From: a virus
Lineage: Duplodnaviria; Caudoviricetes
Length of the DNA stretch: 64,000 nucleotides
Virus record (IMG/VR): IMGVR_UViG_2912838376_000002
Span: 1 to 64,000 of that record
Reading direction: 5' to 3' (one strand)
Part shown: positions 632 to 60,255 of the stretch, piece by piece
How the letters are laid out: each line of letters begins with the position of its first letter
How positions within the stretch are numbered: position 1 is the stretch's first letter
The notes under the pieces: generated by a model
The model's input: the letters and a program-made list of their open reading frames with translations, nothing else
The model's database searches: none
Told to the model about the DNA's origin: nothing
Made by a program: the position numbers and the translations under genes

Positions 632-3600
632 TTGGCACAGTACCAAAGAAACTTTTATTCTAGTTCATTATATGGACGACTAAAAGCATTTTATGGAGAT
701 TATCTAACAGAAGAATTTGATGCTCAAGAACCTTTTAGCTATCATATCGATGCAAAGATCCAAGCACAATTACCTTCTACTTTTTACGCAGCAACAAGCA
801 GAGAATTTACAAGAACCGATTCAACCAAGTGGACAGTATCGGGTACTGATATTAAAACAAGAACTGCTAATACACCAGTGGAATTCTTAGCTACGGGTGA
901 CAATTTGGAAGTTCATGTACGACTTCAAAACGTGGGAACTCAGAACATCGAAGCGAGGTTATATAAAGAAGAATTGGTAGCAGAAGCATATCAATGGGTA
1001 GAGAAGCAAATAAAATCAATCAATACTTATCCTTAACGAATCCAAATAAAGTAGATAAAATTGCTTTTGACTCTTACGGTTTTGGTGATTACAAAGTAGT
1101 TATCCAAGCACTTGATACGACAGCAGATGCAATCATTGTTGGAGGCAAATTAAGAACAAGTGATTTCAATATTGAAATTCGTACCTCTGCCAATAAAACT
1201 ACATGGTCTCAATGGGAGCCTATTACTTTAACGAAAGCATTTATTCAAGGACAGGATTATTTATGTACAGGACAGAGCGTGACATTATATCAAAACGTTC
1301 GTTATGTTCAAGGTAAAATAATTTTACTATCTTCGGATAATGCTACTTCTCCAATTATTGATAAGGTTGAATTGCGTTCAGAAGACAGTGGGTTATATGA
1401 TCAAAATGGTGATTACACTGTTAAAATCGATATGACGCAAGTAGCAAAAGTGTTGGTAAGACATTCAAATATGCAAGTAAGATACGTTTTATTCAGAAGC
1501 AACCAACTGGTACTGAAATGAATATTCGTTCTTCTTCTAGTCGAGACAATATATTCTGGGGCCCGATAACAGCGCCATATCGTCAAAATACAAATCGTCT
1601 TCGATTAAAACGTGGAGCAACAAATCACAGTGTAACACTAGGACCGATTAATGAAGGAACTAAGTTCGATTTCAGTAAAACAACTGCATTATTAAAGTGG
1701 GACACACAAGCATTCTCTCCTAAAGATGCAAGTAACACTAAGATATCTTATGTTTTCTCTAAAACAAGAACGAACCAAAAAGACCCTCGAAATCTTCTTC
1801 AAGTAATTGATAATCCGATGAATGTAAAAGATCGAGCGATGAAGTTCTCTCCTCAACCATATTTCCTAACTGTAGAAATGACACGTTCTTCAGTAAGAGG
1901 AACGCCGGTAGTTGACCTTATAGATATTTACCAAAACATCTTATACAAAGAAGTAGTCAATGTAATTAATAAAGATGTTTCTGCAGTAGATGGTTTAAGT
2001 ACAGGTAGAAAATCACTTCAAAAGATTAGCGATTATGCATTCAAGTATCCTAGTACCTCAAATCAAATTCCATTCAACCAACAGCAAATTACTTCTGCTC
2101 AACAAAAGTATGAGCTTACAGACCAAACAAGAAGACCTTCTGATGTTATGATTTACCTTAAATCAGAAGAAAGTAAAGGATCTAGAAAGGTAAGTCTACA
2201 TCTGCATCTGATGAAGTAATTGCAAAAGCTATTCAAAGGAAGTTGGAGTTTGGACAAAAAACAGGAGTCCTTATGCATTACCAATATGGTGCAGGGAAGG
2301 TTCAGTATTTAAGACCTTATGAAAGAGAAATAGATTCCACATTCACACCATTCTTACTACCTAATCTTAAGTACCGTTATTACATTCAAAATGGATGGCC
2401 AAACGAATTCCACAAGGTTGTTAATGGACAAACATTGAATGATGTAGCTGAAATGTATAACACAACGGTAACTGCAATTAAAACTATCAATAAGGATATC
2501 CTGCTGAATGAAGATGGAACATTAGTGAAAGACCAACTTATCACGATGCCAAACACATCTAAAAAACAGTGATGTTTCTCTATTGTTTAAGAATGGTACG
2601 GTTTATACGCAAAAATCTAGTCATAACTCAGTATATGACAAAGATCATGTGTAAACGTTACAGACTTCTCAAGTGAACCAATAAGTATTAAGGTTCCAAA
2701 CACTCCTCCAAAAGGATATGTGGATTGGGCATCAGAAGAAAAAATTTACACTGGTGTAATTAATGCGAATGATATCGCGGTGAATTTGTTCGTACACAGT
2801 TCAACCTTTCAACTCTTGCGGATTTCAATCGTGAATATATGGTAATAGAGGGTGATACTTGGGAAAGTATTGCTACTAAGTACGATGTTCACGTACAAGA
2901 CCTGAAGGTAGCCAATGATTCAATTGAAGATTAAAAGTAGGAGATACAATCATCATTCCTCCAAAATATTATTCTTCCTGCATTAGCTCCCGAAGCCGAG
3001 TTCGAAAATGCGATGCCTTATGAGATTTCTATTATTGAAGATTCTGTTCATAAGAAAAATGGAGTTAGAATTGATGAGTCCTTTGTTCCTATTGATTGGA
3101 GTGGAAAACATCTTCCTCTTGAAGTTACATATAGAACTTCTGAACTTCTAACAGCTGAAATGGTAAGAGGTGCAGATGCAAATGGAATGGATCCACTTCC
3201 TTGAGTGATGTTGTTGAGATTGTTTCTTGTAAGAAAGGCAGTGTAACATATCACATTGGAACGAAACTTTAAAAACAGGTGACTTCAAATTAAAGAGCAA
3301 CTACATTGATTGGTCTCCATCTCAAGCAGGAGTACTAGAGCCTGCAGCAGGAGAAGAATACGTTGTTGTTTATAAGCGTCGTGAAGTAGACAGTGTGAAA
3401 GTTCATTTAGATACAACTTTACTTCGAAAAAAATGGGAACAGACATTGTATGGCGTTCACCTGAAATAAAAGTATTTGATGGGGTTTGTACACCAACAGA
3501 AGACTTTAAACTGGAACTTCCTATCCTCAATCTTTCGAAGGATATGATGGTATCTACAAGAATATCGGATATATTATTGAGGATAATGACTTATGGGTAG

Positions 3601-25747: not shown

Positions 25748-25782
25748 TGTTCAATAAATAACATGTTCCAAATGTTCAATAG
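25748..25782 (+). promoter_or_regulatory. Ter-like replication terminator site (left), putative RTP-binding site
   Basis: TGTTCA-N8-CATGTTCCAAATGTTCAATAG; core ATGTTCCAAATGTTCA is 15/16 to the B. subtilis TerI B-site ATGTACCAAATGTTCA (from memory); the identical 21-mer occurs inverted at 51627-51647. Confidence 0.75.
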
Positions 25783-34072: not shown

Positions 34073-35320
34073 ATGCGCCCGATTACATTAAGAAATCCGA
34101 ATCTAAATAAAGGGCCTAGCTCTTCTGAAGAATTTAATAAACTACGTAATGATATTCAAACAGACATTACTACTTTGTTTGATATTGTTAATGACCATGA
34201 TGGTGTAATTTCTGAAAACATGGATCATATCTTACGTGAAAATTACTTCTTGCAAAACCGTCTAAAGAAATTAGAGGGAAGAGTGTATGAGTTAGAAAAG
34301 GATTATCAGAACAATAGTATAGCAGGGGAGAGTATCCTTACTCGATCTTTCTATCATGCAAGCAACATCATTTCATCAAATCCAAATAGCCCCGTTAATG
34401 TAGATACACTTCATGGGCTTATTACCCCAGTTGTTGTTCGATCTCATGATAAGATTGCCTATAAGAATGACTTAGGTGAATACATATTACCTAGCAACCT
34501 AGAAGTAAACGTATATGAGTCATCAGATGTAGAGCCAATTGATGAAGAAACAAAACAACGTAAATTCTACGAAGTAGATTCTAGTGGCATTACAAAAGCA
34601 TTTGATGGAGACAAGAACTCATTCTGGGTTCGTCAATCAGAAACAAATGAGAATAAATGTGTAACAGAAGTGTATGGATTGATTCATGTAAAGATCCCAC
34701 AAAACATTTCTAACAACATTTATACAAATACGATTACTCTTCATCCATCTCCAGAGTACTCTATGAGCGTTCTTGATATTCAATACAAGAATCAGAATGG
34801 GGAGTGGAGGCGTATTGAAACTTATCCCGTTAAAAAGGTAAACAATACAGATGTACCGGAAGAGATGGTTGAATCTGGTAAGTTAGTATTTGCATTCCCA
34901 AGACGACAAGTAACGGAATTACAAATCAAAGTAAAACAACCTTACTGGTTCAAGCATGACAATAAAAGAATCTTTATGTACGGATTCCAAGACATCGTTG
35001 TAGAGTACCGTGAGTATTCACAAGATACTGCAGAGTTCACAACAAAGTTCTCATTAGAAGGAACAGATCGTCGTTTCACAAATGTAAACACACCAAAGGT
35101 AACAGTACCAGTTGGATGTCCACCATTTAGCGACTATACTGTAAAACATGAATTGTATTTTGATGAGGGGTTAACGGAGAAGTTTGATTTCTCAACAGAT
35201 ATTTTCCAACCAATTCAATCTGTATATGTAAAAACACTTTTAAAAACAGCAGGGGATCAGGTACCATTCTTACGTGAGATTGAGTTACCTTACCGACATG
35301 AAGAATTAGAAGTACTGTAA
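34073..35320 (+). CDS. Virion protein, paralogous family member 5
   Basis: 415 aa; KGPSSSEEFNKL...DITTLF motif; AFDGDKNSFW discoidin-like segment. Confidence 0.7.
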   Translation: MRPITLRNPNLNKGPSSSEEFNKLRNDIQTDITTLFDIVNDHDGVISENMDHILRENYFLQNRLKKLEGRVYELEKDYQNNSIAGESILTRSFYHASNIISSNPNSPVNVDTLHGLITPVVVRSHDKIAYKNDLGEYILPSNLEVNVYESSDVEPIDEETKQRKFYEVDSSGITKAFDGDKNSFWVRQSETNENKCVTEVYGLIHVKIPQNISNNIYTNTITLHPSPEYSMSVLDIQYKNQNGEWRRIETYPVKKVNNTDVPEEMVESGKLVFAFPRRQVTELQIKVKQPYWFKHDNKRIFMYGFQDIVVEYREYSQDTAEFTTKFSLEGTDRRFTNVNTPKVTVPVGCPPFSDYTVKHELYFDEGLTEKFDFSTDIFQPIQSVYVKTLLKTAGDQVPFLREIELPYRHEELEVL

Positions 35321-35337
35321 TTCAGATAGGGACAAAA

Positions 35338-35365
35338 CTTCAATATAAAAATAGTTATATTGGAA
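35338..35365. other. 11-6-11 palindromic Xer-type core site (site A)
   Basis: CTTCAATATAA-AAATAG-TTATATTGGAA; inner 8 bp of the arms perfectly inverted; ATAA-N6-TTAT dif signature. Confidence 0.45.
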
Positions 35366-35513
35366 TACATAAACATTTAAAAGATTCTTGTACAAGTATT
35401 CTAATTGGTTTAAAATACAAAAAAGTATAACTATTTTCAATTCTTTAGTTTTCGCAAGAAGAAGCTATAACCGTCTTCTTCTCGTAGATAAAACATAGGA
35501 GAGGATTGGTATA

Positions 35514-35777
35514 TTGAGCAAAATATTGTCTGGTGATTCTAAACAATTACTACAAGAAGTAGATCGAAAAATGAGCATAATTGAGTCTATACTTCAGAAT
35601 AGTTCTGGATATGTGGTTGCAGAAGAAGTATCAAAGATTCATCAATTGCTTTTAGAGGCATCACGATTGTTACTTCTGTTAGAACAAGACCACAGGATGG
35701 CATCTCACGCAAAAGAATTAAATCTACAATTACAAACTTTTAAAGAACACTACAATCAAATAATGAGTAGAGGCTAA
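35514..35777 (+). CDS. Small helical hypothetical protein
   Basis: 87 aa, TTG start with AGGAGAGG upstream; terminator downstream. Confidence 0.6.
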   Translation: MSKILSGDSKQLLQEVDRKMSIIESILQNSSGYVVAEEVSKIHQLLLEASRLLLLLEQDHRMASHAKELNLQLQTFKEHYNQIMSRG

Positions 35778-35797
35778 ATATAATGTCTCTATAATCT

Positions 35798-35832
35798 AAA
35801 AAGATCAACTTACGATATGAGTTGGTCTTTTT
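35798..35832. terminator. Bidirectional terminator
   Basis: AAAAAGATCAACT...AGTTGGTCTTTTT. Confidence 0.6.
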
Positions 35833-35988
35833 ATTATGTTAAATACAATTTGTCAATTCATAAAATTACCTTTGATAACTCCACTTTTTGTGAATCTAAA
35901 GATCGGGATTTAATGTTATTATATGAATTGTCAGAAATATAATACATATGTAAATATTTTTGAAAATCACATTTGGAGGAATTATACT

Positions 35989-36714
35989 ATGGTAAAATCT
36001 AAAACAAAATTAAAGAAAATCATTCCGGTAACAATGCTATTAGCAACTACGCTAACATCTGCACCACTGTCTTCTTTTGCGGCTGAAAAAAACGATGTGC
36101 AAAACAATTATGTTTCTTCTCAAAAAGCTAATAAAGCATTTCAACCTACAGAAGAATCAATTACTTTTATGTCTAAAGTAGTAAGCAGTGGGGCAATTAA
36201 AGAATTTGATTTTAGTCCAGATTTAAAAACAATGACATACAAACATGATATGGCCACAATGAAAAATACTTACAACTTTAATGATGAAGAGATTGCTAAA
36301 TTAGAGCAAATCGTAACCTTCTATAATGAAAGTGTGAAGAATAATTCTAGTTCAGGTTTAACTAATCCAAATATGAACGCAGTTAAAAAAGGTGGTCCAC
36401 AATATGTAGTAACTGATTACGGTTGGACATGGATTAAAATGACGTTCACGAATGCAGAAACAAAATTACTTTTAGCAGGCGCTGCAGCTGAAGGAGCATA
36501 TGCTATGTATGCCGCATTTGTAGGACTATCAGCAATTACAGCTACACCAGTCGGAGGAGCGATTATCTCTGCTTTAGCTTTGATGGGGCTTCCTAAATTT
36601 GCTTCAATTTGTCAAACTGTTCTAAGGGCGCTTGCTGCAGGAAAAGGAGTTTTCATTGAAATTGGAATGGATGGTGTGATTCCATATATCTCTGCAAGTG
36701 TTGCGAGACATTAA
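35989..36714 (+). CDS. Secreted protein with a hydrophobic Gly/Ala-rich C-terminus (putative bacteriocin precursor)
   Basis: GGAGG RBS; Sec-type signal MVKSKTKLKKIIPVTMLLATTLTSAPLSSFA; hydrophobic C-terminal ~90 aa. Confidence 0.55.
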   Translation: MVKSKTKLKKIIPVTMLLATTLTSAPLSSFAAEKNDVQNNYVSSQKANKAFQPTEESITFMSKVVSSGAIKEFDFSPDLKTMTYKHDMATMKNTYNFNDEEIAKLEQIVTFYNESVKNNSSSGLTNPNMNAVKKGGPQYVVTDYGWTWIKMTFTNAETKLLLAGAAAEGAYAMYAAFVGLSAITATPVGGAIISALALMGLPKFASICQTVLRALAAGKGVFIEIGMDGVIPYISASVARH

Positions 36715-36736
36715 GGTGAGTCAGGGAGGTGGTACT

Positions 36737-37087
36737 GTGACAAAGAAAAAGATGGATACGTTTAAAATTGCATGTGGTTTTGGAGTCTGGGGGTACACCT
36801 TTTTTCTAGGTGCTATGCTTACACATGTGTATTATGCTGGTGATCTTCTCCTAGCAACATGTATCTATGGATTTATTGGGAGTGTACTTTTAACTATACA
36901 ATATCATATGTTACGGGATCTCCCATTTACGGAGCGTCTCCTTGAAATAATGATAGTACTAATAATACAGGCATATACTATTTTTTCTGAACATCAAAAT
37001 ATGAATGTGGTAATGCTTGTATTTGTTATTGCTGTTGTGAGTTGTGTATTAATTAATCAAAAGAAAGTAAGAAAAGTATATAGGTAA
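36737..37087 (+). CDS. Four-TM membrane protein (putative immunity)
   Basis: GGGAGG RBS before GTG 36737; four hydrophobic segments with basic termini. Confidence 0.55.
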   Translation: MTKKKMDTFKIACGFGVWGYTFFLGAMLTHVYYAGDLLLATCIYGFIGSVLLTIQYHMLRDLPFTERLLEIMIVLIIQAYTIFSEHQNMNVVMLVFVIAVVSCVLINQKKVRKVYR

Positions 37088-37111
37088 CTAATAATGTCAT
37101 CATAAATTCCT

Positions 37112-37157
37112 AAAAAAGAGAAGGGAGCATAACCGAAATGGCATGCTCCTTTTTTAT
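37112..37157. terminator. Bidirectional terminator at the coding-strand switch
   Basis: A-rich run, GGAGCAT...ATGCTCC hairpin and T run between convergent genes. Confidence 0.65.
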
Positions 37158-37358
37158 TTAAAACTTTATCTTTGAAACTTCTTCTAATAAAGCTTTCTTT
37201 TTATTCTCATCAGTTGTTGTAAGAGATTCATTAATCATTCCTGTAGCTTTAAGAAAGTTCTTAACTGCTTCTACTTCTTCGGGTCTAGAATCTTCGTTTT
37301 CTAAAACCTCTAAAGCATATGTAATTGAAGTAGCAAGTGAAACCGTTAAAATTTCCAT
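37158..37358 (-). CDS. Hypothetical protein
   Basis: AAGGAG RBS before MEILTV. Confidence 0.6.
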   Translation of the reverse strand: MEILTVSLATSITYALEVLENEDSRPEEVEAVKNFLKATGMINESLTTTDENKKKALLEEVSKIKF

Positions 37359-37420
37359 ATTATTATCTCCTTCTAAATGGCTTTTAATATGTATTTCTAC
37401 AGGTAACAAGTAATACCTTT

Positions 37421-37627
37421 TTAATTGTTTAAATCATAAATCATACCAGCGAAAAATATCCCTATAACTACAAGTGCGATAAGAGCACCTAATAGCATTT
37501 TCCCAAGAGAGCCAGTTAGAATTTCATGTAACATTCCTTTAGCATGCTCTTGAGGTTTTCCTCGTAAAGTGAGGGAGAGGATGAAAGTAATTATTAGTAA
37601 AAATAATGCCGCAATTAAATATCCCAT
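37421..37627 (-). CDS. Two-TM membrane protein
   Basis: AAGGAG RBS; two hydrophobic helices. Confidence 0.65.
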   Translation of the reverse strand: MGYLIAALFLLIITFILSLTLRGKPQEHAKGMLHEILTGSLGKMLLGALIALVVIGIFFAGMIYDLNN

Positions 37628-37700
37628 TGTTTATGTATCTCCTTAATTTAAGTTGTCCAATACATTATATCAGCTGGAACATCTGAAGGTAATAATATTT

Positions 37701-37913
37701 TTATTTACGTACAAGTCTTATTCTATTGAATTGAGCAAGGTTATTATTAGTGTCATGAGCCATTACTTTATCGACGATTCTAACACCTATATAATCCTTA
37801 AAATCCTCGTCGCCATCTTTAATCTTTTGTTTGATCTCAGCAGCTTTTTGTTTGCAAAATTCATTTGTGTAATACCCAGTACACCATAAGAGAGTTTTAC
37901 TTCTATCAGCCAT
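37701..37913 (-). CDS. Hypothetical protein
   Basis: 70 aa; starts 2 nt after the stop of the ArfA-like ORF. Confidence 0.55.
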   Translation of the reverse strand: MADRSKTLLWCTGYYTNEFCKQKAAEIKQKIKDGDEDFKDYIGVRIVDKVMAHDTNNNLAQFNRIRLVRK

Positions 37914-37915
37914 AA

Positions 37916-38065
37916 TTACACCGCTCTTAAATCGATTTTAGAATTTTTGCGTGAGTAAGAACCTTTGCCTTTTTTAGCTTTATCAGCTCTTGCTGGTGGG
38001 GGCATAGTTCCACGGTTTTGTGTCATAACACCAATACGCTTATCTTTATTCTGTTTATTTTTCAT
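37916..38065 (-). CDS. ArfA-like alternative ribosome-rescue peptide, 49 aa (not in ORF track)
   Basis: MKNKQNKDKRIGVMTQNRGTMPPPARADKAKKGKGSYSRKNSKIDLRAV; contains KKGKGSYxRK, the conserved ArfA motif; AAGAAGGA RBS. Confidence 0.65.
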   Translation of the reverse strand: MKNKQNKDKRIGVMTQNRGTMPPPARADKAKKGKGSYSRKNSKIDLRAV

Positions 38066-38101
38066 AACAAATTCCTTCTTTCTTAATAACAATAGTGAAT
38101 A

Positions 38102-38235
38102 GAAAAAGACAGCCTGCGAACGGCTGCCTCAATCCTTAGGGAGGAAAATAATGATTTGGTAAAGTAGATAGGTTTTAAACAAGTTCGGATTTCACCGGGA
38201 GGTGTGAAAGCGTAAAAACTTGCGAGGTAACTTAC
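38102..38235 (-). ncRNA. Candidate sRNA with C-rich anti-SD motifs
   Basis: No substantial ORF; minus-strand hairpin UUUCAC-ACCUCCCG-GUGAAA, a second UUUUCCUCCCU, and terminator GGCAGCC-GUUCGCA-GGCUGUC-UUUUU. Confidence 0.4.
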
Positions 38236-38277
38236 TCTCTTAATAAAACCTTTTCACTGTGCATATGCAACTTTGTA

Positions 38278-38451
38278 TTACATCAAAATTTCCGGATGAT
38301 ACATTTGAATGTGTTTAGCATCATCAAACGTATACGACGACATAAAATCTAATGTATTTTCATAATCAGTATGTTCCTTAACGTACAAACCTAGTGCGAT
38401 GAAATTAACGGTTAATGTTTGGTTGTAACCAATACACAAATCAATTCTCAT
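38278..38451 (-). CDS. Hypothetical protein (57 aa)
   Basis: GGAGG RBS before MRIDLCIG. Confidence 0.55.
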   Translation of the reverse strand: MRIDLCIGYNQTLTVNFIALGLYVKEHTDYENTLDFMSSYTFDDAKHIQMYHPEILM

Positions 38452-38517
38452 GATAAAACCTCCAGTAAAAATATATGTAATTAACCCAAAGAGGGGATTA
38501 AAGTTGCTTTCGAACTC

Positions 38518-38545
38518 TTTCAACATAATACCAATTTAGTTGAAA
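38518..38545. other. 11-6-11 palindromic difSL-like core site (site B)
   Basis: TTTCAACATAA-TACCAA-TTTAGTTGAAA, intergenic; flanks AACTC and GACATC shared with site C. Confidence 0.6.
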
Positions 38546-38586
38546 GACATCACCTGAAAATAAAACCAGGGGAAAGACCCCTGATT

Positions 38587-38799
38587 CTAATGAACAAAAA
38601 GTTCTCGGCCTTTAGTAAATTCTTTTTCATCTAAGATCAAATAATAAAAATAACATTCTTGATCATCGATAGGTTCAGAGCCTACTAGTTGAAAAGTTTT
38701 ACCGTACTTATTTACAAACCAAGTGCGAGCTTCATCATGGCTAGAGAATAAAGGGATTTTGGCTTCATCCTCACGAGAAATATGACCAGGAGCGTACAT
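38587..38799 (-). CDS. Hypothetical protein, possibly a remnant
   Basis: 70-aa ORF; an in-frame upstream ATG (38835) is separated by a TAG. Confidence 0.4.
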   Translation of the reverse strand: MYAPGHISREDEAKIPLFSSHDEARTWFVNKYGKTFQLVGSEPIDDQECYFYYLILDEKEFTKGRELFVH

Positions 38800-38843
38800 A
38801 GGATCGCCAACTTTCTACAAGATTAATTGTTTCATAGTTTGAT

Positions 38844-39248
38844 TTATTCCGTTTTCCTTCTCCAAATTTCAGCAGCTTTAGGTCTAATTTGAGCTTTGTG
38901 ATAAATACTCGTACCGCTAACACCTTTAGCGTTTCGCAGACCTACAGCTAATTGATAAAAATCATGACCATCTTGTTCGTACTTATATACGAATCTGTAA
39001 TCTCTTTTCATTTTACGAGGTGGATTCATCATTGAATGAAAGTCTAAGCGACTCCAACCCTCTAATTGGAATCTAAGTTCGGTATTTGGAAGAAAAGGAT
39101 TGGCCATTGCAGTCGCTATAGCATTCTGAAAAGTACCGTAATAAAATTCATGGAATCGTTCCTGAGTCATGCTCTGAGCAATTTCAGCAAGATCGTTCAC
39201 AATCTCCGGATGTATGTACACGTCTCTTATTGGATATCTACTGCTCAT
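38844..39248 (-). CDS. RelE/ParE-superfamily toxin-like protein
   Basis: VYIHPEIVNDL N-terminus; L...LEGWSRL...DYRFVY...AVGLR...SIY pattern; overlaps the upstream gene. Confidence 0.55.
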   Translation of the reverse strand: MSSRYPIRDVYIHPEIVNDLAEIAQSMTQERFHEFYYGTFQNAIATAMANPFLPNTELRFQLEGWSRLDFHSMMNPPRKMKRDYRFVYKYEQDGHDFYQLAVGLRNAKGVSGTSIYHKAQIRPKAAEIWRRKTE

Positions 39249-39684
39249 CTTTAAATTTCCATCCTTTTTCTTTTTTATTTTGCATAATTAAATCAAATAA
39301 TTGCTCAGGGTTATTAGATTTAATAAATTCACTTTTAGGAGTGTTTGCACGTTCAGCATACTTTTCACTAATTTCTTTTTGTTCTATAAAACTTTTTAGG
39401 TGCCTCTTTGGTCTTGGGTTTTTATTCTCAAGAGAAACTCGATGAGGTAATGGGTATTCAAATGCGACAAAAATGCCACTATCAGTTTCTTTTACTTTGT
39501 ATTTTGGTGGTGTTGGCACAGTTGGTGGCTCAGCATATTGTAGAGAAGAACGTATAGCTGGTACCGCTCTAGCTATGTTCGTCATTTCGGCCTGAGACAT
39601 TCCTCTAACTAGACTTAAAAGCGCATCTTTATCTCCTTTTTCTATTACATCCAACATAAGTTCTAACTTGTCGGTTGTTTTCAT
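39238..39684 (-). CDS. Putative cognate antitoxin
   Basis: 148 aa, GAGGTG RBS, overlaps the toxin by 11 nt; operator-like inverted repeat in its promoter. Confidence 0.5.
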   Translation of the reverse strand: MKTTDKLELMLDVIEKGDKDALLSLVRGMSQAEMTNIARAVPAIRSSLQYAEPPTVPTPPKYKVKETDSGIFVAFEYPLPHRVSLENKNPRPKRHLKSFIEQKEISEKYAERANTPKSEFIKSNNPEQLFDLIMQNKKEKGWKFKDEQ

Positions 39685-39722
39685 GCTTACTCACCTCAAT
39701 CAATATAGGTTTATTTTCCATT

Positions 39723-39756
39723 ATTATAGCATATATCTTCTCCGAAAAAGATATAT
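39723..39756 (-). promoter_or_regulatory. -10 box plus inverted-repeat operator of the TA operon
   Basis: TATAAT on minus at 39723-39728; ATATATCTT-N8-AAGATATAT at 39731-39756. Confidence 0.5.
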
Positions 39757-39774
39757 CTTAAACCAAGAAAGGCT

Positions 39775-39802
39775 TCTTAACGATAATATTATTATGTTAA
39801 CT
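39775..39802 (+). other. dif-like site (XerC/XerD, CodV/RipX type)
   Basis: (T)CTTAACGATAA-TATTA-TTATGTTAACT; right arm 10/11 to both the E. coli (TTATGTTAAAT) and B. subtilis (TTATGTAAACT) XerD arms as recalled; spacer is 5 rather than 6 bp. Confidence 0.5.
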
Positions 39803-39803
39803 C

Positions 39804-39831
39804 TTTCTACTAAAAACGCTTATTGTTGAAA
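39804..39831. other. 11-6-11 palindromic difSL-like core site (site C)
   Basis: TTTCTACTAAA-AACGCT-TATTGTTGAAA, 1 bp from the dif-like site. Confidence 0.6.
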
Positions 39832-39855
39832 GACGTCGAATCATTAAAAACTTTC

Positions 39856-41651: not shown

Positions 41652-42104
41652 TTATTCTTCGTCTTCGAAATCACGTAGGTTATCAAGCAACTCTGTAAAT
41701 GTAGAGCAAACAGGGTATATTGCTTTCTCTATATCATCTTCTTCATGATCCCAAAATACGATTGTTGGTGAATCAGGATTGTTTCGATAATCAAAACATA
41801 AAAAATTTCCAAACGAATCACTTGCAAATGGGTATACTCGATCCACCAACCATTCTTTTATATTCTCGTATCTTTGGACAATTGAATATTTATCATCCAT
41901 ATGTAGAGTTAATAGATCATTAAATGTACTTTCATCTTGTCCTGCTATATCAAAAACTTTAGGCTGAGGATATCCTCCGTCATTTTCTTTAACACACTCA
42001 ATAAAATCATTAGGTAATTTAATGTTAAAATACTCTTCTACTTTTTTTATCTCATTATCCGTAATTTCTTTTTTACTTACACCAATCCATGTAATGTTAC
42101 TCAC
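41652..42104 (-). CDS. SMI1/KNR4 (SUKH) immunity protein
   Basis: EIKKVEEYFNIKLPNDF...NDGG; PFASDSFGNFLCFDYR...IVFWDHE. Confidence 0.9.
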   Translation of the reverse strand: MSNITWIGVSKKEITDNEIKKVEEYFNIKLPNDFIECVKENDGGYPQPKVFDIAGQDESTFNDLLTLHMDDKYSIVQRYENIKEWLVDRVYPFASDSFGNFLCFDYRNNPDSPTIVFWDHEEDDIEKAIYPVCSTFTELLDNLRDFEDEE

Positions 42105-42116
42105 GGGTCAACCTCC

Positions 42117-43349
42117 TTATTTTTCACCTTTTTTGCCCCAAATATTATATCCACCAGTATGACCAGTTTTCTCATGCAGGAACGCGTCTACGAGCTGCAT
42201 TCTACCTGTATCCTGATGGTGGTGCCATGTATACGTCTTAGGTTTTTCACCCCTCTTAAATAGTTCAATTTCCTCTGCTGTAAATTTAGCAGCCAATTTT
42301 GGATCTTTTACTATTTGTTCGTATAACAGCTTATTACATATTCTATCATGTGTAGGTCTTGTTTTTTTAAAGTCAGCTTCTTTTAGTTTAACTTCAGCAA
42401 AAGCATCGAAAATAGGGAACCCATCTAAATCATACGGTACACCTGAAACTGGATGCCTATCTCCCGCCAACTCCCCTTTTCTTAATTTGATTGTCTTTGG
42501 ACCATTTTTACCTTCATAAGTATAGGTGACCGCTTTCTGTAAATACTGCTGAGTACTTCCGACTCCCGCATATGAAAGATGGTTCCCACCTTTAAACTCA
42601 TAGTTGTTTAATATATGCAATGCATTTCTGTATGCTGGGGAATTAATTACAAGTGATTTACCTTTAGCAAAACCTGTAACAGCAGCTACCTTCCCTACTT
42701 GTCCTGCTTTACTAAGACCCTTATCACCCAGAAGTCCGAGTCCTAACGTTGTTATACCATAAGCTACATAATGCTCTCTACTTTCCAAATCTCCATTCCA
42801 AAACTTATTCATAAATGTATCTGAGAAAGCGTTCCATGCAGCAGGAATAGTTTCCTCATAGTTTACAATCGCATCTCTCATATTCAGCCAGGTTTCTTTA
42901 TCAGCTAAGGATATTAGTCCTTCCCATGCATCTACTGCACCATCTACAAAACCAGTAGAAATACCAGTCCACGCAGCACTTAAATCCTTTTTATTAAAAA
43001 ATGACTCTTCTGATTTTGGAGGGAGTTTTCCACACATGGCTCCTTCTTGAATATCAGAATCAGCTAGATTCCCGCCATACAGCTCATCGGCTTCTCGGAA
43101 TTTAACAGCTGCACGTTCTAATTCTACTGCAATTTTTTCTAATTCTTGTAGAACATTAAACATCATTGGTTTCGTATCATTAAACATATGGTAGAACCGA
43201 TCACTAGTTGCTCCACTCCATTGAGAAGCAATGTATTCTGTTTGTTTATATAAATCTTTATGTATGTACTCTAGGGTTGATTTCGCATCTCTTACGGTTT
43301 TGGCCGCATTTTCTAATTGCTCTGGCGTTACCTTAATCTGCGTACTCAT
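42117..43349 (-). CDS. T7SS polymorphic toxin: WXG100 N-terminus plus HNH (WHH-type) nuclease
   Basis: IKVTPEQL...QWSG WXG100; C-terminal GFPIF...YTWHHHQDTGRMQLV...H...GHTGG. Confidence 0.9.
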   Translation of the reverse strand: MSTQIKVTPEQLENAAKTVRDAKSTLEYIHKDLYKQTEYIASQWSGATSDRFYHMFNDTKPMMFNVLQELEKIAVELERAAVKFREADELYGGNLADSDIQEGAMCGKLPPKSEESFFNKKDLSAAWTGISTGFVDGAVDAWEGLISLADKETWLNMRDAIVNYEETIPAAWNAFSDTFMNKFWNGDLESREHYVAYGITTLGLGLLGDKGLSKAGQVGKVAAVTGFAKGKSLVINSPAYRNALHILNNYEFKGGNHLSYAGVGSTQQYLQKAVTYTYEGKNGPKTIKLRKGELAGDRHPVSGVPYDLDGFPIFDAFAEVKLKEADFKKTRPTHDRICNKLLYEQIVKDPKLAAKFTAEEIELFKRGEKPKTYTWHHHQDTGRMQLVDAFLHEKTGHTGGYNIWGKKGEK

Positions 43350-49713: not shown

Positions 49714-49782
49714 TCTAAAAATCGAACATTCATTCTTGATTCAGGAAAAAATGAGATATAAAATAGAAGTGAGGTGAAAATA

Positions 49783-50880
49783 ATGAGACTTGAACGCCAA
49801 AAGGATAGTGAGAAGCTAGAAAAACTACGTCCTTCGTTTCCTTACTATATTTCTGAATACATACAAGTGAGCTTAGATCAACTCACGCCTACAACAGTTC
49901 TCTCATATACAATAGATATCCAAGACTTTTTAGAATGGTTTTGGCATACTTTCGTACCGGAAAAACCGGGAATAAAAGAAATCTCCCTAGAAGACCTAGA
50001 GAGATTAATTGAGATTGATATATCTCATTACCGTTCGCACTTAAAGTATCGTGAGGATTCTCATAACAAAGGTAATAGATATTACAAAACAAAAAATAAG
50101 GACACCACAATCAGCAGAAAGATTAGTGCCCTTAGAAGTTTATTTGATTATTTAACTAAGAATACAAACCGTGAGACAGGAAGACCCTATCTTAGTAAGA
50201 ACGTACTTGAGAACACAAAAGTATTCTCCACGAAAGTTTCTGTTAGAGCTAAGGCTCAGAAACTAAAGAATAGTATTATAAGACTTGAAGAACTGACTGA
50301 GTTCCAAGACTTTATCCTAGAGGGATATGGTAAAGAACAATTAAGTAACATGGAAAAAGCCTACTGGAAAATTAATCGACATAGAGATGCTGCAATCATA
50401 TCCCTTTTATTAACTAGTGGTATCCGTGTTGGTGAGTTATCTAGTCTTAGACTGAAAGATGTTATCTTTGATTCCCGCAAGTTAGTCGTAGAAAGAAAAC
50501 GTAGTAAGGAAGATGTTGTTTTCTTTTCTAAGCAGACGTTAGAATATATAGTACAGTACCTTGAAGTTAGAGAAAGTCATTATAAAGCAGACGATAAACC
50601 GACTTCTCCTTTATTTGTTACAAAATATGCAGGTAAGATAAATCCTATCAGTAAGAATACTGTTCAAAAAATGATAATGAAATATGCTAAAATCTATGGA
50701 AAGCCCGAACTAACAGCACACATATTGCGTCATAGTTTCGGGACGAATGTATTTAAAAAGACCAAGAACATTCGAGGAGTACAAGAAGCTCTTGGTCATT
50801 CATCAATTAATACGACTCAAATCTATACTCACATGTTCGAAGACGACGAACGTGAATTAATAGATGAAGTGTTTGAGTAA
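49783..50880 (+). CDS. Tyrosine recombinase, XerS-like
   Basis: R (SGIRVGEL), K, HxxR (HILRH), LGH and Y (TQIY) catalytic motifs; ~365 aa with P.YI.EY N-terminus; GAGGTG RBS. Confidence 0.85.
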   Translation: MRLERQKDSEKLEKLRPSFPYYISEYIQVSLDQLTPTTVLSYTIDIQDFLEWFWHTFVPEKPGIKEISLEDLERLIEIDISHYRSHLKYREDSHNKGNRYYKTKNKDTTISRKISALRSLFDYLTKNTNRETGRPYLSKNVLENTKVFSTKVSVRAKAQKLKNSIIRLEELTEFQDFILEGYGKEQLSNMEKAYWKINRHRDAAIISLLLTSGIRVGELSSLRLKDVIFDSRKLVVERKRSKEDVVFFSKQTLEYIVQYLEVRESHYKADDKPTSPLFVTKYAGKINPISKNTVQKMIMKYAKIYGKPELTAHILRHSFGTNVFKKTKNIRGVQEALGHSSINTTQIYTHMFEDDERELIDEVFE

Positions 50881-51121: not shown

Positions 51122-51508
51122 CTAACTAACTGGACCATAATGATCTTTAAGTGCTTTATCAAGCAATCCTTTGCAACGTTCCAGTTCTTTCTTCATTTGT
51201 TGTTTATATCTGTCGTATTCTTTCTTACCGTCATCAGTCAATTGATAAAGAATGATTTCTTGAAAGTCTACTCCCTCTTCCCCTTTTATCTTCTTCTCCC
51301 GTTTTACATATCCATCTCGTGTTAATTCATGTAATGTTTTATATAGTTCTGTATGAGTTGGATTATAGCCTAAAAACTTAAACTCTTCTCTCAAGTCATT
51401 AAGATACTGTGAACCATACCCTTTATTACGATCAATTATTTTATAGATATATAACTTTAAGTATGAACGCTGTTTTAATAAGAACCCTCTATTTTGATAT
51501 TCCTCCAC
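51122..51508 (-). CDS. rtp: Replication terminator protein homologue
   Basis: GFLLKQRSYLKLY...YG...LREEFK.LGY.P.HTE.Y..LHEL..DG...QEIILYQ...ELERCK.L..KAL.D parallels B. subtilis RTP along its length. Confidence 0.9.
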   Translation of the reverse strand: MEEYQNRGFLLKQRSYLKLYIYKIIDRNKGYGSQYLNDLREEFKFLGYNPTHTELYKTLHELTRDGYVKREKKIKGEEGVDFQEIILYQLTDDGKKEYDRYKQQMKKELERCKGLLDKALKDHYGPVS

Positions 51509-51626: not shown

Positions 51627-51661
51627 CTATTGAACATTTGGAACATGGTTGGTGATGAACA
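51627..51661 (-). promoter_or_regulatory. Ter-like replication terminator site (right), upstream of rtp
   Basis: Minus strand TGTTCA-TCACCAAC-CATGTTCCAAATGTTCAATAG; 21-mer identical to 25762-25782. Confidence 0.75.
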
Positions 51662-60048: not shown

Positions 60049-60255
60049 CTATTTCTTCAGACGTTTCTTTTTGAATTCAATAATCGTAGTAGGGACGATG
60101 AAAATTGCTAAAGCCATAAAAACAATATCTATCCATAATGCTGTATCAGATCCCACAATGGCACGATGAGCAGAATCGATAAAGATAAAGAACCACCCTA
60201 CAATAACAAACACATCAACACCCATTTGAAACTTCGTAGATTTTATAAATTTCAT
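60049..60255 (-). CDS. Two-TM membrane protein
   Basis: Hydrophobic 68-aa ORF with ATGA overlap. Confidence 0.6.
   Translation of the reverse strand: MKFIKSTKFQMGVDVFVIVGWFFIFIDSAHRAIVGSDTALWIDIVFMALAIFIVPTTIIEFKKKRLKK

Follow-up and report, generated by a model that had tools for sequence, protein, structure and literature searches.

The stretch of DNA analysed in this work (the window) comprises 64,000 nucleotides, positions 1 to 64,000 of the 244,829-bp IMG/VR virus record IMGVR_UViG_2912838376_000002, and is part of a circular jumbo phage-plasmid of Bacillaceae that belongs to the pBtic235 family. We found that two short palindromic sites in this element, B and C, are real and functionally constrained. 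In our estimate the chances are about even that site B, and probably also site C, are Xer-type core sites used by the element's own tyrosine recombinase XerS for dimer resolution at the replication terminus. That the sites exist, are unique and conserved and lie where they do, and that the recombinase is a XerS family member, is shown by the analysis; binding to the sites, strand exchange, the acting recombinase and the role of B and C in dimer resolution are what we infer from the sequence. The two sites were read as follows.

Site B: 38516-38547, with a 28-bp 11-6-11 core at 38518-38545, no strand; TCTTTCAACATAA-TACCAA-TTTAGTTGAAAGA, a near-perfect palindrome.
Site C: 39802-39833, with the core at 39804-39831, no strand; TCTTTCTACTAAA-AACGCT-TATTGTTGAAAGA, of the B family and less symmetrical.

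The letters and coordinates of B and C in a preliminary description of this DNA agreed with direct reading, as did the different spacers that it assigned to them, and each phage-plasmid carries two such sites. The flank pattern that it described as shared by B and C, TCTTTCWAC-N14-GTTGAAAGA, was likewise recovered and was confined to these two sites in the whole record. It matched three times in the window, twice at B (once per strand) and once at C, where the mean expected in 100 shuffles was 0.00, and with up to one mismatch allowed it gave only B and C in the 244,829 bp, the reversed-pattern control giving 0. TCTTTC-N20-GAAAGA occurred exactly twice each in the whole record and in two distant relatives introduced below (W01 and W02). 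Searched in IMG/VR, the exact pattern was found in two close relatives and at one chance match. With ACTCTTTC-N20-GAAAGAGT, 16 IMG/VR loci were obtained, none of which has the inner arms, and all were discarded as chance. A general promoter motif was ruled out, since there are only two copies in 245 kb. Intrinsic terminators were judged unlikely by inspection, since the arms are A+T-rich, the loop is 14 nt long, a T run is missing and a proper hairpin adjoins B.

The known member of the family, pBtic235, is described as a circular jumbo prophage-plasmid of Bacillus thuringiensis sv. israelensis (PMC9700832, PMC6199540). It corresponds to eight B. thuringiensis plasmids of 235,424-235,426 bp, and it forms one element family with the window element, the phage genes being collinear and its annotated xerS product 98% identical to the window XerS. 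The window element differs from it in its size (244.8 kb) and in extra insertions at 35321-37112 and 38846-39703. The closest relatives of the window were two pBtic235-like IMG/VR fragments (G001 and G002), and more distant family members were Cytobacillus oceanisediminis pN497-ZHONG (W01; 240,207 bp, XerS 69% identical) and Bacillus velezensis pAD3 (W02; 220,131 bp, XerS 70% identical). The four phage-plasmids compared below are the whole record (G000), G001, W01 and W02. A megablast search of the region against the phage collection returned no match, and the genome contigs searched for relatives of the 156-aa neighbour of the sites or of XerS gave none, or one distant relative.

The arms of B were identical in the four elements, and the only two substitutions both fell in the central 6 bp, which reads TACCAA, TACTAA or TACCGA. 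Site C was conserved in G001 and W01, and its inner arms were degenerate in W02. Between the window and G001 the 32-bp cores of both sites were identical, in surrounding blocks of 84-89% identity. When 35.3-49.7 kb was compared with W01, the alignable DNA came down to three pieces: B over 35 bp (97%), C over 57 bp (91%) and a coding stretch of 238 bp. Of 19 window proteins encoded at 34-44 kb, none was matched within the 8 kb that surround the W01 sites. Since B and C align to W01 amid otherwise unalignable DNA and the neighbouring proteins are unmatched, the sites are selected for themselves and not carried along with their neighbours. A pattern that fixed only the arms found ten further exact-arm sites; when these are pooled with the sites of the four phage-plasmids, ten variants of the central region are counted. 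In the ten further sites the dinucleotides that flank the arms, which lie outside the fixed pattern, were AC in 9/10 and GT in 8/10.

The position of the sites in the replicon was compared with the following features.

Strand convergence point of plus-strand and minus-strand genes: 37087-37158, no strand; the cumulative GC-skew maximum is in the 36-37 kb bin.
rtp, replication terminator protein (RTP) homologue: 51122-51508, minus strand; Pfam RTP PF02334, 5.1e-41.
Ter-like site 1: 51628-51647, plus strand; TATTGAACATTTGGAACATG, just upstream of rtp.
Ter-like site 2: 25762-25781, minus strand; the identical 20-mer in opposite orientation, an exact match.

The cumulative GC skew reached its maximum at 37, 158 and 168 kb in the record, W01 and W02 respectively, and B, at 38.5, 156.5 and 168.3 kb in the same order, is 0.3-1.5 kb away. 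The rtp gene adjoins xerS in the window and was present in 3/3 relatives searched (G001, W01 and W02). The 20-mer TATTGAACATTTGGAACATG has exactly two occurrences in the record and resembles a B. halotolerans site, TATTGAACATTTGGTACATAG followed by TTTAATTAGT; presumably these sequences fit the B. subtilis Ter consensus. A 16-mer Ter pattern was also searched in the genome contigs, where L020 was examined among the matches listed. One inverted Ter-like pair each was found in G001, W01 and W02, and both copies within a replicon share the same changes. In 4/4 elements B lies between two inverted Ter-like sites, one of which is beside rtp, and C is inside the interval as well. Since this separate pair was found, B and C themselves were ruled out as Ter sites of RTP.

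Together with RTP, the Ter-like pair has the appearance of a replication fork trap, here carried by a jumbo phage-plasmid. We take the conserved 20-mer to be the strong 'B' half of Ter. On that assignment the predicted polarity of the pair would let forks in, not out, because forks which meet the strong half-site first are described as stopped (PMC10331603). The arrangement resembles the B. subtilis terminus as presented in that source in its RTP homologue, the Ter-like site beside the gene, the inverted second copy, and the dif-like site and skew switch in between; it is unlike that terminus in being on a 245-kb phage-plasmid, in having only two Ter-like sites found and in carrying XerS instead of the XerC/XerD pair, and the fork trap here is a predicted one. 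The terminus position of B and C points first to dimer resolution. For pBtic235, PMC8116677 mentions an Rtp-like protein and a recombinase named 'XerC'; the covered text of PMC8116677 and PMC6199540 and the literature searches gave no Ter-like or dif-like sites or fork trap on pBtic235, a result that does not extend to the original description (Gillis et al. 2017b, cited in PMC6199540).

The gene of the candidate recombinase was read as follows.

xerS: 49783-50880, plus strand; NCBI equivalog NF003462 with 329.2 bits (cut-off 267) over residues 7-366, with Pfam Phage_integrase and SAM_1 domains.

The equivalog match settles the identity of what had been listed as a XerS-like gene 10 kb away, and by PF00589 it is the sole tyrosine recombinase of the 244,829 bp. 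In the mechanism that we favour, B and C would be core sites of a Xer-family tyrosine recombinase, each with two inverted arms of ~13 bp around a 6-bp centre. The most likely enzyme would be the element's own XerS, two monomers of which would occupy the arms of one site. On a replicon dimer the two copies of one such site would pair with each other, and exchange of strands over their identical centres would return monomers. Site B would act as the conserved primary site, and C as a second, looser site abutting a host-dif-like XerD arm. Recombination of B with C would not be expected to be productive, since their centres, TACCAA and AACGCT, are unrelated.

These features are like those described for XerS/difSL of streptococci and lactococci (PMC2965235), where a XerS equivalog, a sole tyrosine recombinase, inverted arms around a 6-bp centre and a terminus position are also found, and the outer TCTTTC of B and C is identical to the first letters of the left, strongly bound difSL arm (PMC2965235). 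The differences are the two sites per replicon, the near-symmetrical arms (those of difSL are asymmetrical), the Bacillaceae phage-plasmid background and an arm likeness of 17/25 positions. This score was obtained for B on both strands and for C against lactococcal difSL, and at least 17 was reached by 15 of ~490,000 placements. Of the difSL likeness in the preliminary description the outer TCTTTC held; in the arms, 12 further placements in the record score as high as B and C or higher. The difSL string that it gave agreed with the minimal difSL of Lactococcus lactis, as printed in PMC2965235, except near the string end.

A second comparison is offered by the tet(45) mobile element of B. cereus, described as having a difSL-like motif at its edge and a XerS-like integrase (PMC4876114). 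As here, a recombinase annotated as XerS goes with a difSL-like site on mobile DNA of the B. cereus group; the tet(45) element differs in being inserted in the chromosome and in having two integrases plus an excisionase-like gene, and the likeness is one of description (PMC4876114).

In the 230 bp upstream of xerS no difSL-like site was found, the best score being 15/25 arm positions, which we count in favour of B and C as the XerS sites. What is conserved there resembles a promoter that includes a small palindrome of the GAAC/GTTC type. The stretch CGAACATTCATTCT at 49723-49736, upstream of xerS, is kept as CGAAC-N4-GTTCT in W01 and W02, and we take it to resemble a Bacillus LexA box. Given that likeness xerS would be under SOS control, which would fit the DNA-damage induction of pBtic235.

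Exact-arm B sites were present in seven GTDB genomes, where XerS above cut-off was found in 2/7 and RTP in 0/7. As 5/7 of them are without XerS above cut-off, a B-type site is not strictly tied to XerS. In two loci (L192 and L195) the exact-arm site, at 3001-3032 in each, is ~190 bp upstream of tandem recombinase genes that are Xer-like and non-XerS. These loci are from Peribacillus deserti and Bacillus sp. OV322, and P. deserti has four tandem recombinase matches at C1:172.3-175.6 kb. In a Peribacillus genome (G006) both B-type sites adjoin stop-riddled remnants of a phage virion gene (C5:278314-281315 and C10:45770-50720), and one exact-arm B site is beside decayed xerS fragments; these loci are decayed terminus regions of such elements. 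The tie of B-type sites to tyrosine recombinases is good, and their tie to XerS in particular is moderate.

Several results weigh against dimer resolution by XerS. Two sites per replicon are more than this task needs. The skew peak is the gene convergence point, so that GC skew is inseparable from gene-strand (transcription) bias, and the four phage-plasmids are syntenic, so that the shared site position does not amount to four independent observations. Of the exact-arm genomes, 5/7 are without XerS above cut-off, though the copies in the Peribacillus genome G006 are in decayed remnants. The 17/25 likeness to lactococcal difSL is equalled or exceeded at the 12 other placements, and B and C are 10-12 kb from xerS, whereas streptococcal difSL is described as directly upstream of xerS (PMC2731167). 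Five distant XerS plasmids have 11-6-11 palindromes of their own within ~1.5 kb of xerS, in W03 at the skew turn, which speaks for XerS; against it, the B/C motif was above control level in 0/5 of them. Finally, a variable centre between fixed half-sites also fits the operator of a dimeric DNA-binding protein.

If B is a XerS target, a 245-kb phage genome keeps a full chromosomal terminus toolkit of fork trap, dimer-resolution site and dedicated recombinase, and XerS gains a directly testable family of non-streptococcal sites. The sites are also concrete targets for stability work on pBtic235-type elements in a widely used biopesticide species, and a defined test case for cassette movement at Xer sites in Gram-positive plasmids.

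The left side of C raises the question of a host enzyme.

Left flank of C: 39781-39802, plus strand; conserved, ending in TTATGTTAACT, the last base of which overlaps the palindrome.

The 11-mer TTATGTTAACT equals the last 11 letters of the chromosomal dif of B. thuringiensis as printed in PMC8116677. It was found once in G000, once in W01 and twice in W02, the place at the flank of C always being included. The sites might accordingly work with host XerC/XerD (CodV/RipX), either as a plasmid dif-like site or as a terminus-organising binding place of XerD, which we consider improbable as an account of B and C. XerD binding places have been reported for SMC unloading in B. subtilis, and host Xer proteins are conserved across Bacillaceae, which would explain the invariant arms. 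Such a role agrees with the abutment of C on an exact copy of the outer 11 letters of dif, with the same exact 11-mer at C-type sites in W01, W02 and a B. thuringiensis megaplasmid discussed below (a one-letter variant in L187 and L194), with the inner 7 letters of B's left arm, which it shares with this dif arm read in reverse, and with the exact-arm B sites in genomes without XerS above cut-off. It does not fit the partner arm and the spacing on the left of the XerD-like arm, where the conserved ATAA is preceded by 5 and not 6 bases in the alignment to the printed dif. Site B is without a dif-like flank, and in B. halotolerans 0/7 exact variant XerD-arm 11-mers were followed by the palindrome. 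Host XerD may bind at the dif-like flank of C, to judge from its letters.

In strain 4Q7, which has lost the chromosomal dif, reads joining pBtic235 to the chromosome are reported, and an overcoverage borders the rtp/recombinase region (PMC8116677). A link of these joins to the dif-like flank of C is possible.

Between 37158 and 49606 every gene is on the minus strand. The statement in the preliminary description that its sites are intergenic held for B and C, each of which follows the 3' end of a minus-strand gene and precedes the next promoter. Read along the minus strand, C comes after the stop of a 156-aa gene and before a promoter-like stretch, and B after a hairpin-plus-T-run terminator (38562-38586) and before the next gene. 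The cassette between C and B contains the following features.

Candidate antitoxin: 39238-39684, minus strand; 148-aa partner upstream, with an 11-base overlap with the 134-aa gene, role assigned from position only.
Candidate toxin: 38844-39248, minus strand; 134-aa protein of putative RelE/ParE-like fold by AlphaFold2 and Foldseek.
Insertion of 858 bp relative to the pBtic235-like relatives: 38846-39703, no strand; it carries both toxin-antitoxin (TA)-like genes, and the blastn blocks end at 38845 and 39704.
Remnant (70 aa) of a gene of the 106-aa family: 38587-38799, minus strand; the usual C-B cargo, shortened by a deletion inside the gene close to its 3' end.
G+C-rich hairpin followed by a T run: 38562-38586, minus strand; likely terminator of the cassette just before B, conserved in G001.

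In G001 a single gene, encoding the 106-aa protein, is present between C and B, and L004 has one gene between the sites. Homologues of the 106-aa family lie beside B in pAD3, L190, L191, L193 and L194. The family had no match in profile searches, and the atlas searches gave unnamed clusters only.

This arrangement bears on the possibility that the palindromes are bound, as operators or architectural sites, by a dimeric protein that is not a recombinase, for example a regulator of the flanked cassette, a reading that we hold to be quite improbable. Fixed half-sites with a free spacer would suit many regulators, C is ~45 bp upstream of the promoter-like region of the cassette (extended -10 TGCTATAAT) and B is just behind its terminator. 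Recombination products were also not seen in contigs of public runs, which had neither a B-C joint nor a circle junction; this is a weak test, since contigs drop rare forms, and it is uninformative on absence. Set against this, the sites stand beside unrelated genes in W01, L186, L188, L189, L192 and L195, a candidate regulator is not shared among them, recombinase genes adjoin the sites in L192, L195 and G006, and the terminus position is left unexplained. The 106-aa cassette product was ruled out as the binder: W01 keeps both sites and has no homologue of the 106-aa protein (best tblastn E 5.7), so that this protein is not the reader of the sites.

An alternative that takes the varied content of the interval as its starting point is that B/C-type sites mark the ends of exchangeable cassettes, whose DNA would move by exchange between like sites of different replicons. 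We regard it as rather unlikely, and it may coexist with dimer resolution. Between B and C, G001 and pAD3 have a single 106-aa gene, W01 has three unrelated genes, and the window has the remnant with two inserted genes. Genes outside the sites differ as well among the window, W01 and W02 while the sites persist. In an unrelated 407-kb B. thuringiensis megaplasmid (NZ_CP083086.1) C, its flank and a 106-aa-family gene were found, and there the likeness to the window stops right at C's outer edge. On its other side it runs out inside the terminator, and a B site is missing, which speaks against the cassette reading. The unit of B plus a 106-aa gene recurs in 4/10 further loci, in genomes without RTP. 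An MNT/HEPN pair next to xerS is enclosed by two 11-6-11 sites, unlike in their centres, in 2/5 distant XerS plasmids, one of which (W06) has four such sites with four different centres; W03 has two.

The close comparison gave the opposite picture. The preliminary description had proposed that gene content changes at the sites, and in blastn comparisons with G001 and G002 (84-98% identity), the only close relatives so compared, 0/6 synteny breaks fell at B or C, which by that description's own account counts against the proposal; the breaks were at 35320/37113, 37153/37367, 37673/37915, 38597, 38845/39704 and ~41526. Nor are B and C the bounds of the TA-like pair that it had placed in a B-C module, for the pair is the 858-bp insertion inside the interval, placed behind the cassette's own promoter, and the ends of the insertion are not at B or C. 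As read from these alignments, the pair is a later insertion and not cargo delimited by the two sites. In addition, B and C retain their own central regions across relatives, as fixed resident sites would, the public contigs had no circle or deletion joint at the sites (again a weak test), and the distant comparisons cannot separate site-specific exchange from ordinary turnover around selected sites. Varied content with recurrent sites fits a cassette system, and also fits selection on resident sites in a fast-turning accessory region. From the module interpretation as a whole there remain the 11-6-11 Xer-type look of the sites, XerS, the recurrent paired sites and C with its gene in the megaplasmid, whereas its third site (A), a module between A and B and breaks at the sites are lost.

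Toxin-antitoxin pairs are common cargo of the pdif modules of Acinetobacter, which use host XerC/XerD and have sites of alternating orientation. The Bacillaceae elements are like these modules, as described in PMC13141974, in having several Xer-type sites per plasmid with varied centres and small gene sets flanked by them. They are unlike them in the plasmid-borne XerS candidate, in the one orientation shared by the flanks and in that close relatives do not differ at the sites. A wider proposal, in which Bacillaceae XerS plasmids and phage-plasmids would have a cassette system, often of TA pairs between Xer-type sites whose centres are particular to each site, exchanged by XerS on like sites, appears to us similarly doubtful. 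If true, XerS cassettes would be the Gram-positive, single-recombinase counterpart of the Acinetobacter dif modules, at the chromosome-like terminus of a jumbo phage genome that also has an RTP/Ter fork trap and a dif-like site.

The palindromes in the plasmids of B. bombysepticus and Peribacillus (L180, at 1288 and 2431; L183, at 1339 and 2428) are of the type TATTCGTAAAA-N6-TTTTACGAATA with different centres. They bracket a nucleotidyltransferase/DUF86 pair directly upstream of xerS, and a further two of these sites are found at 60156 and 115794 of the Peribacillus plasmid. In the megaplasmid NZ_CP083086.1 an IS3 element is ~190 bp away. A joint of 39294 to 39782 was present in one 12-kb contig of run X2 and rests on 50 letters.

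The 134-aa and 148-aa proteins had no match in Pfam, PHROG, NCBIfam or PADLOC. The AlphaFold2 model of the 134-aa protein, built from 9 sequences, had a predicted local distance difference test (pLDDT) score of 65.2, a predicted template modelling (pTM) score of 0.62 and the element order beta-alpha-alpha-beta-beta-beta as in RelE/ParE. With this model Foldseek gave HigB2, RelE, YoeB and ParE as leading matches at template modelling (TM) scores of 0.45-0.54 (best E 6.4e-4, HigB2), and the top 30 were mostly RelE, YoeB, ParE, HigB and YafQ with TM scores of 0.33-0.54; the atlas lead was YhaV (0.89). The name RelE-like TA pair therefore stands on a fold likeness of weak support and not on a sequence-family match, and the two genes are a likely TA pair. 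A direct repeat, AAGATATAT in two copies at 39730-39760, is in the promoter region of the cassette and is a possible operator of the inserted TA-like pair.

The third site named in the preliminary description is on the other side of B.

Site A: 35338-35365, no strand; an unrelated 9/11 palindrome, judged to be at chance level.

Its letters are as described there, and it is a different palindrome outside the B/C family. It was absent from the seven matches of a looser pattern at up to two mismatches (4.0 expected), and the record has 79 11-6-11 palindromes whose complementarity is 9/11 or better, this one included; for both reasons it was treated as chance and rejected as a family member. Site A and the 'bacteriocin-like' pair belong to a 1.8-kb stretch, 35321-37112, that G001 lacks, as do the contigs of runs X1 and X3, which have loose ends at 37113 and continue into the end of the 415-aa gene. 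As this stretch is lacking in relatives, A-B is not a module, and that part of the earlier proposal falls. The insertion is between the stop of the 415-aa virion gene and a shared terminator, is absent from the pBtic235-like relatives, and contains an 87-aa open reading frame (ORF), a 241-aa secreted-looking protein and a 116-aa membrane protein.

Two other loci of the region were observed. A 49-aa ORF at 37916-38065 is above the Pfam ArfA cut-off (26.3 vs 25.5 bits); the counterparts in pBtic235 and pAD3 carry the annotation arfA, and L190 and L194 have ArfA-like ORFs to the left of B as well. At 41652-43349 there is a polymorphic toxin pair, composed of a 410-aa protein of the WXG100/LXG type, whose end is a colicin-DNase/WHH nuclease, and then an immunity-like protein of the SUKH/SMI1-KNR4 kind.

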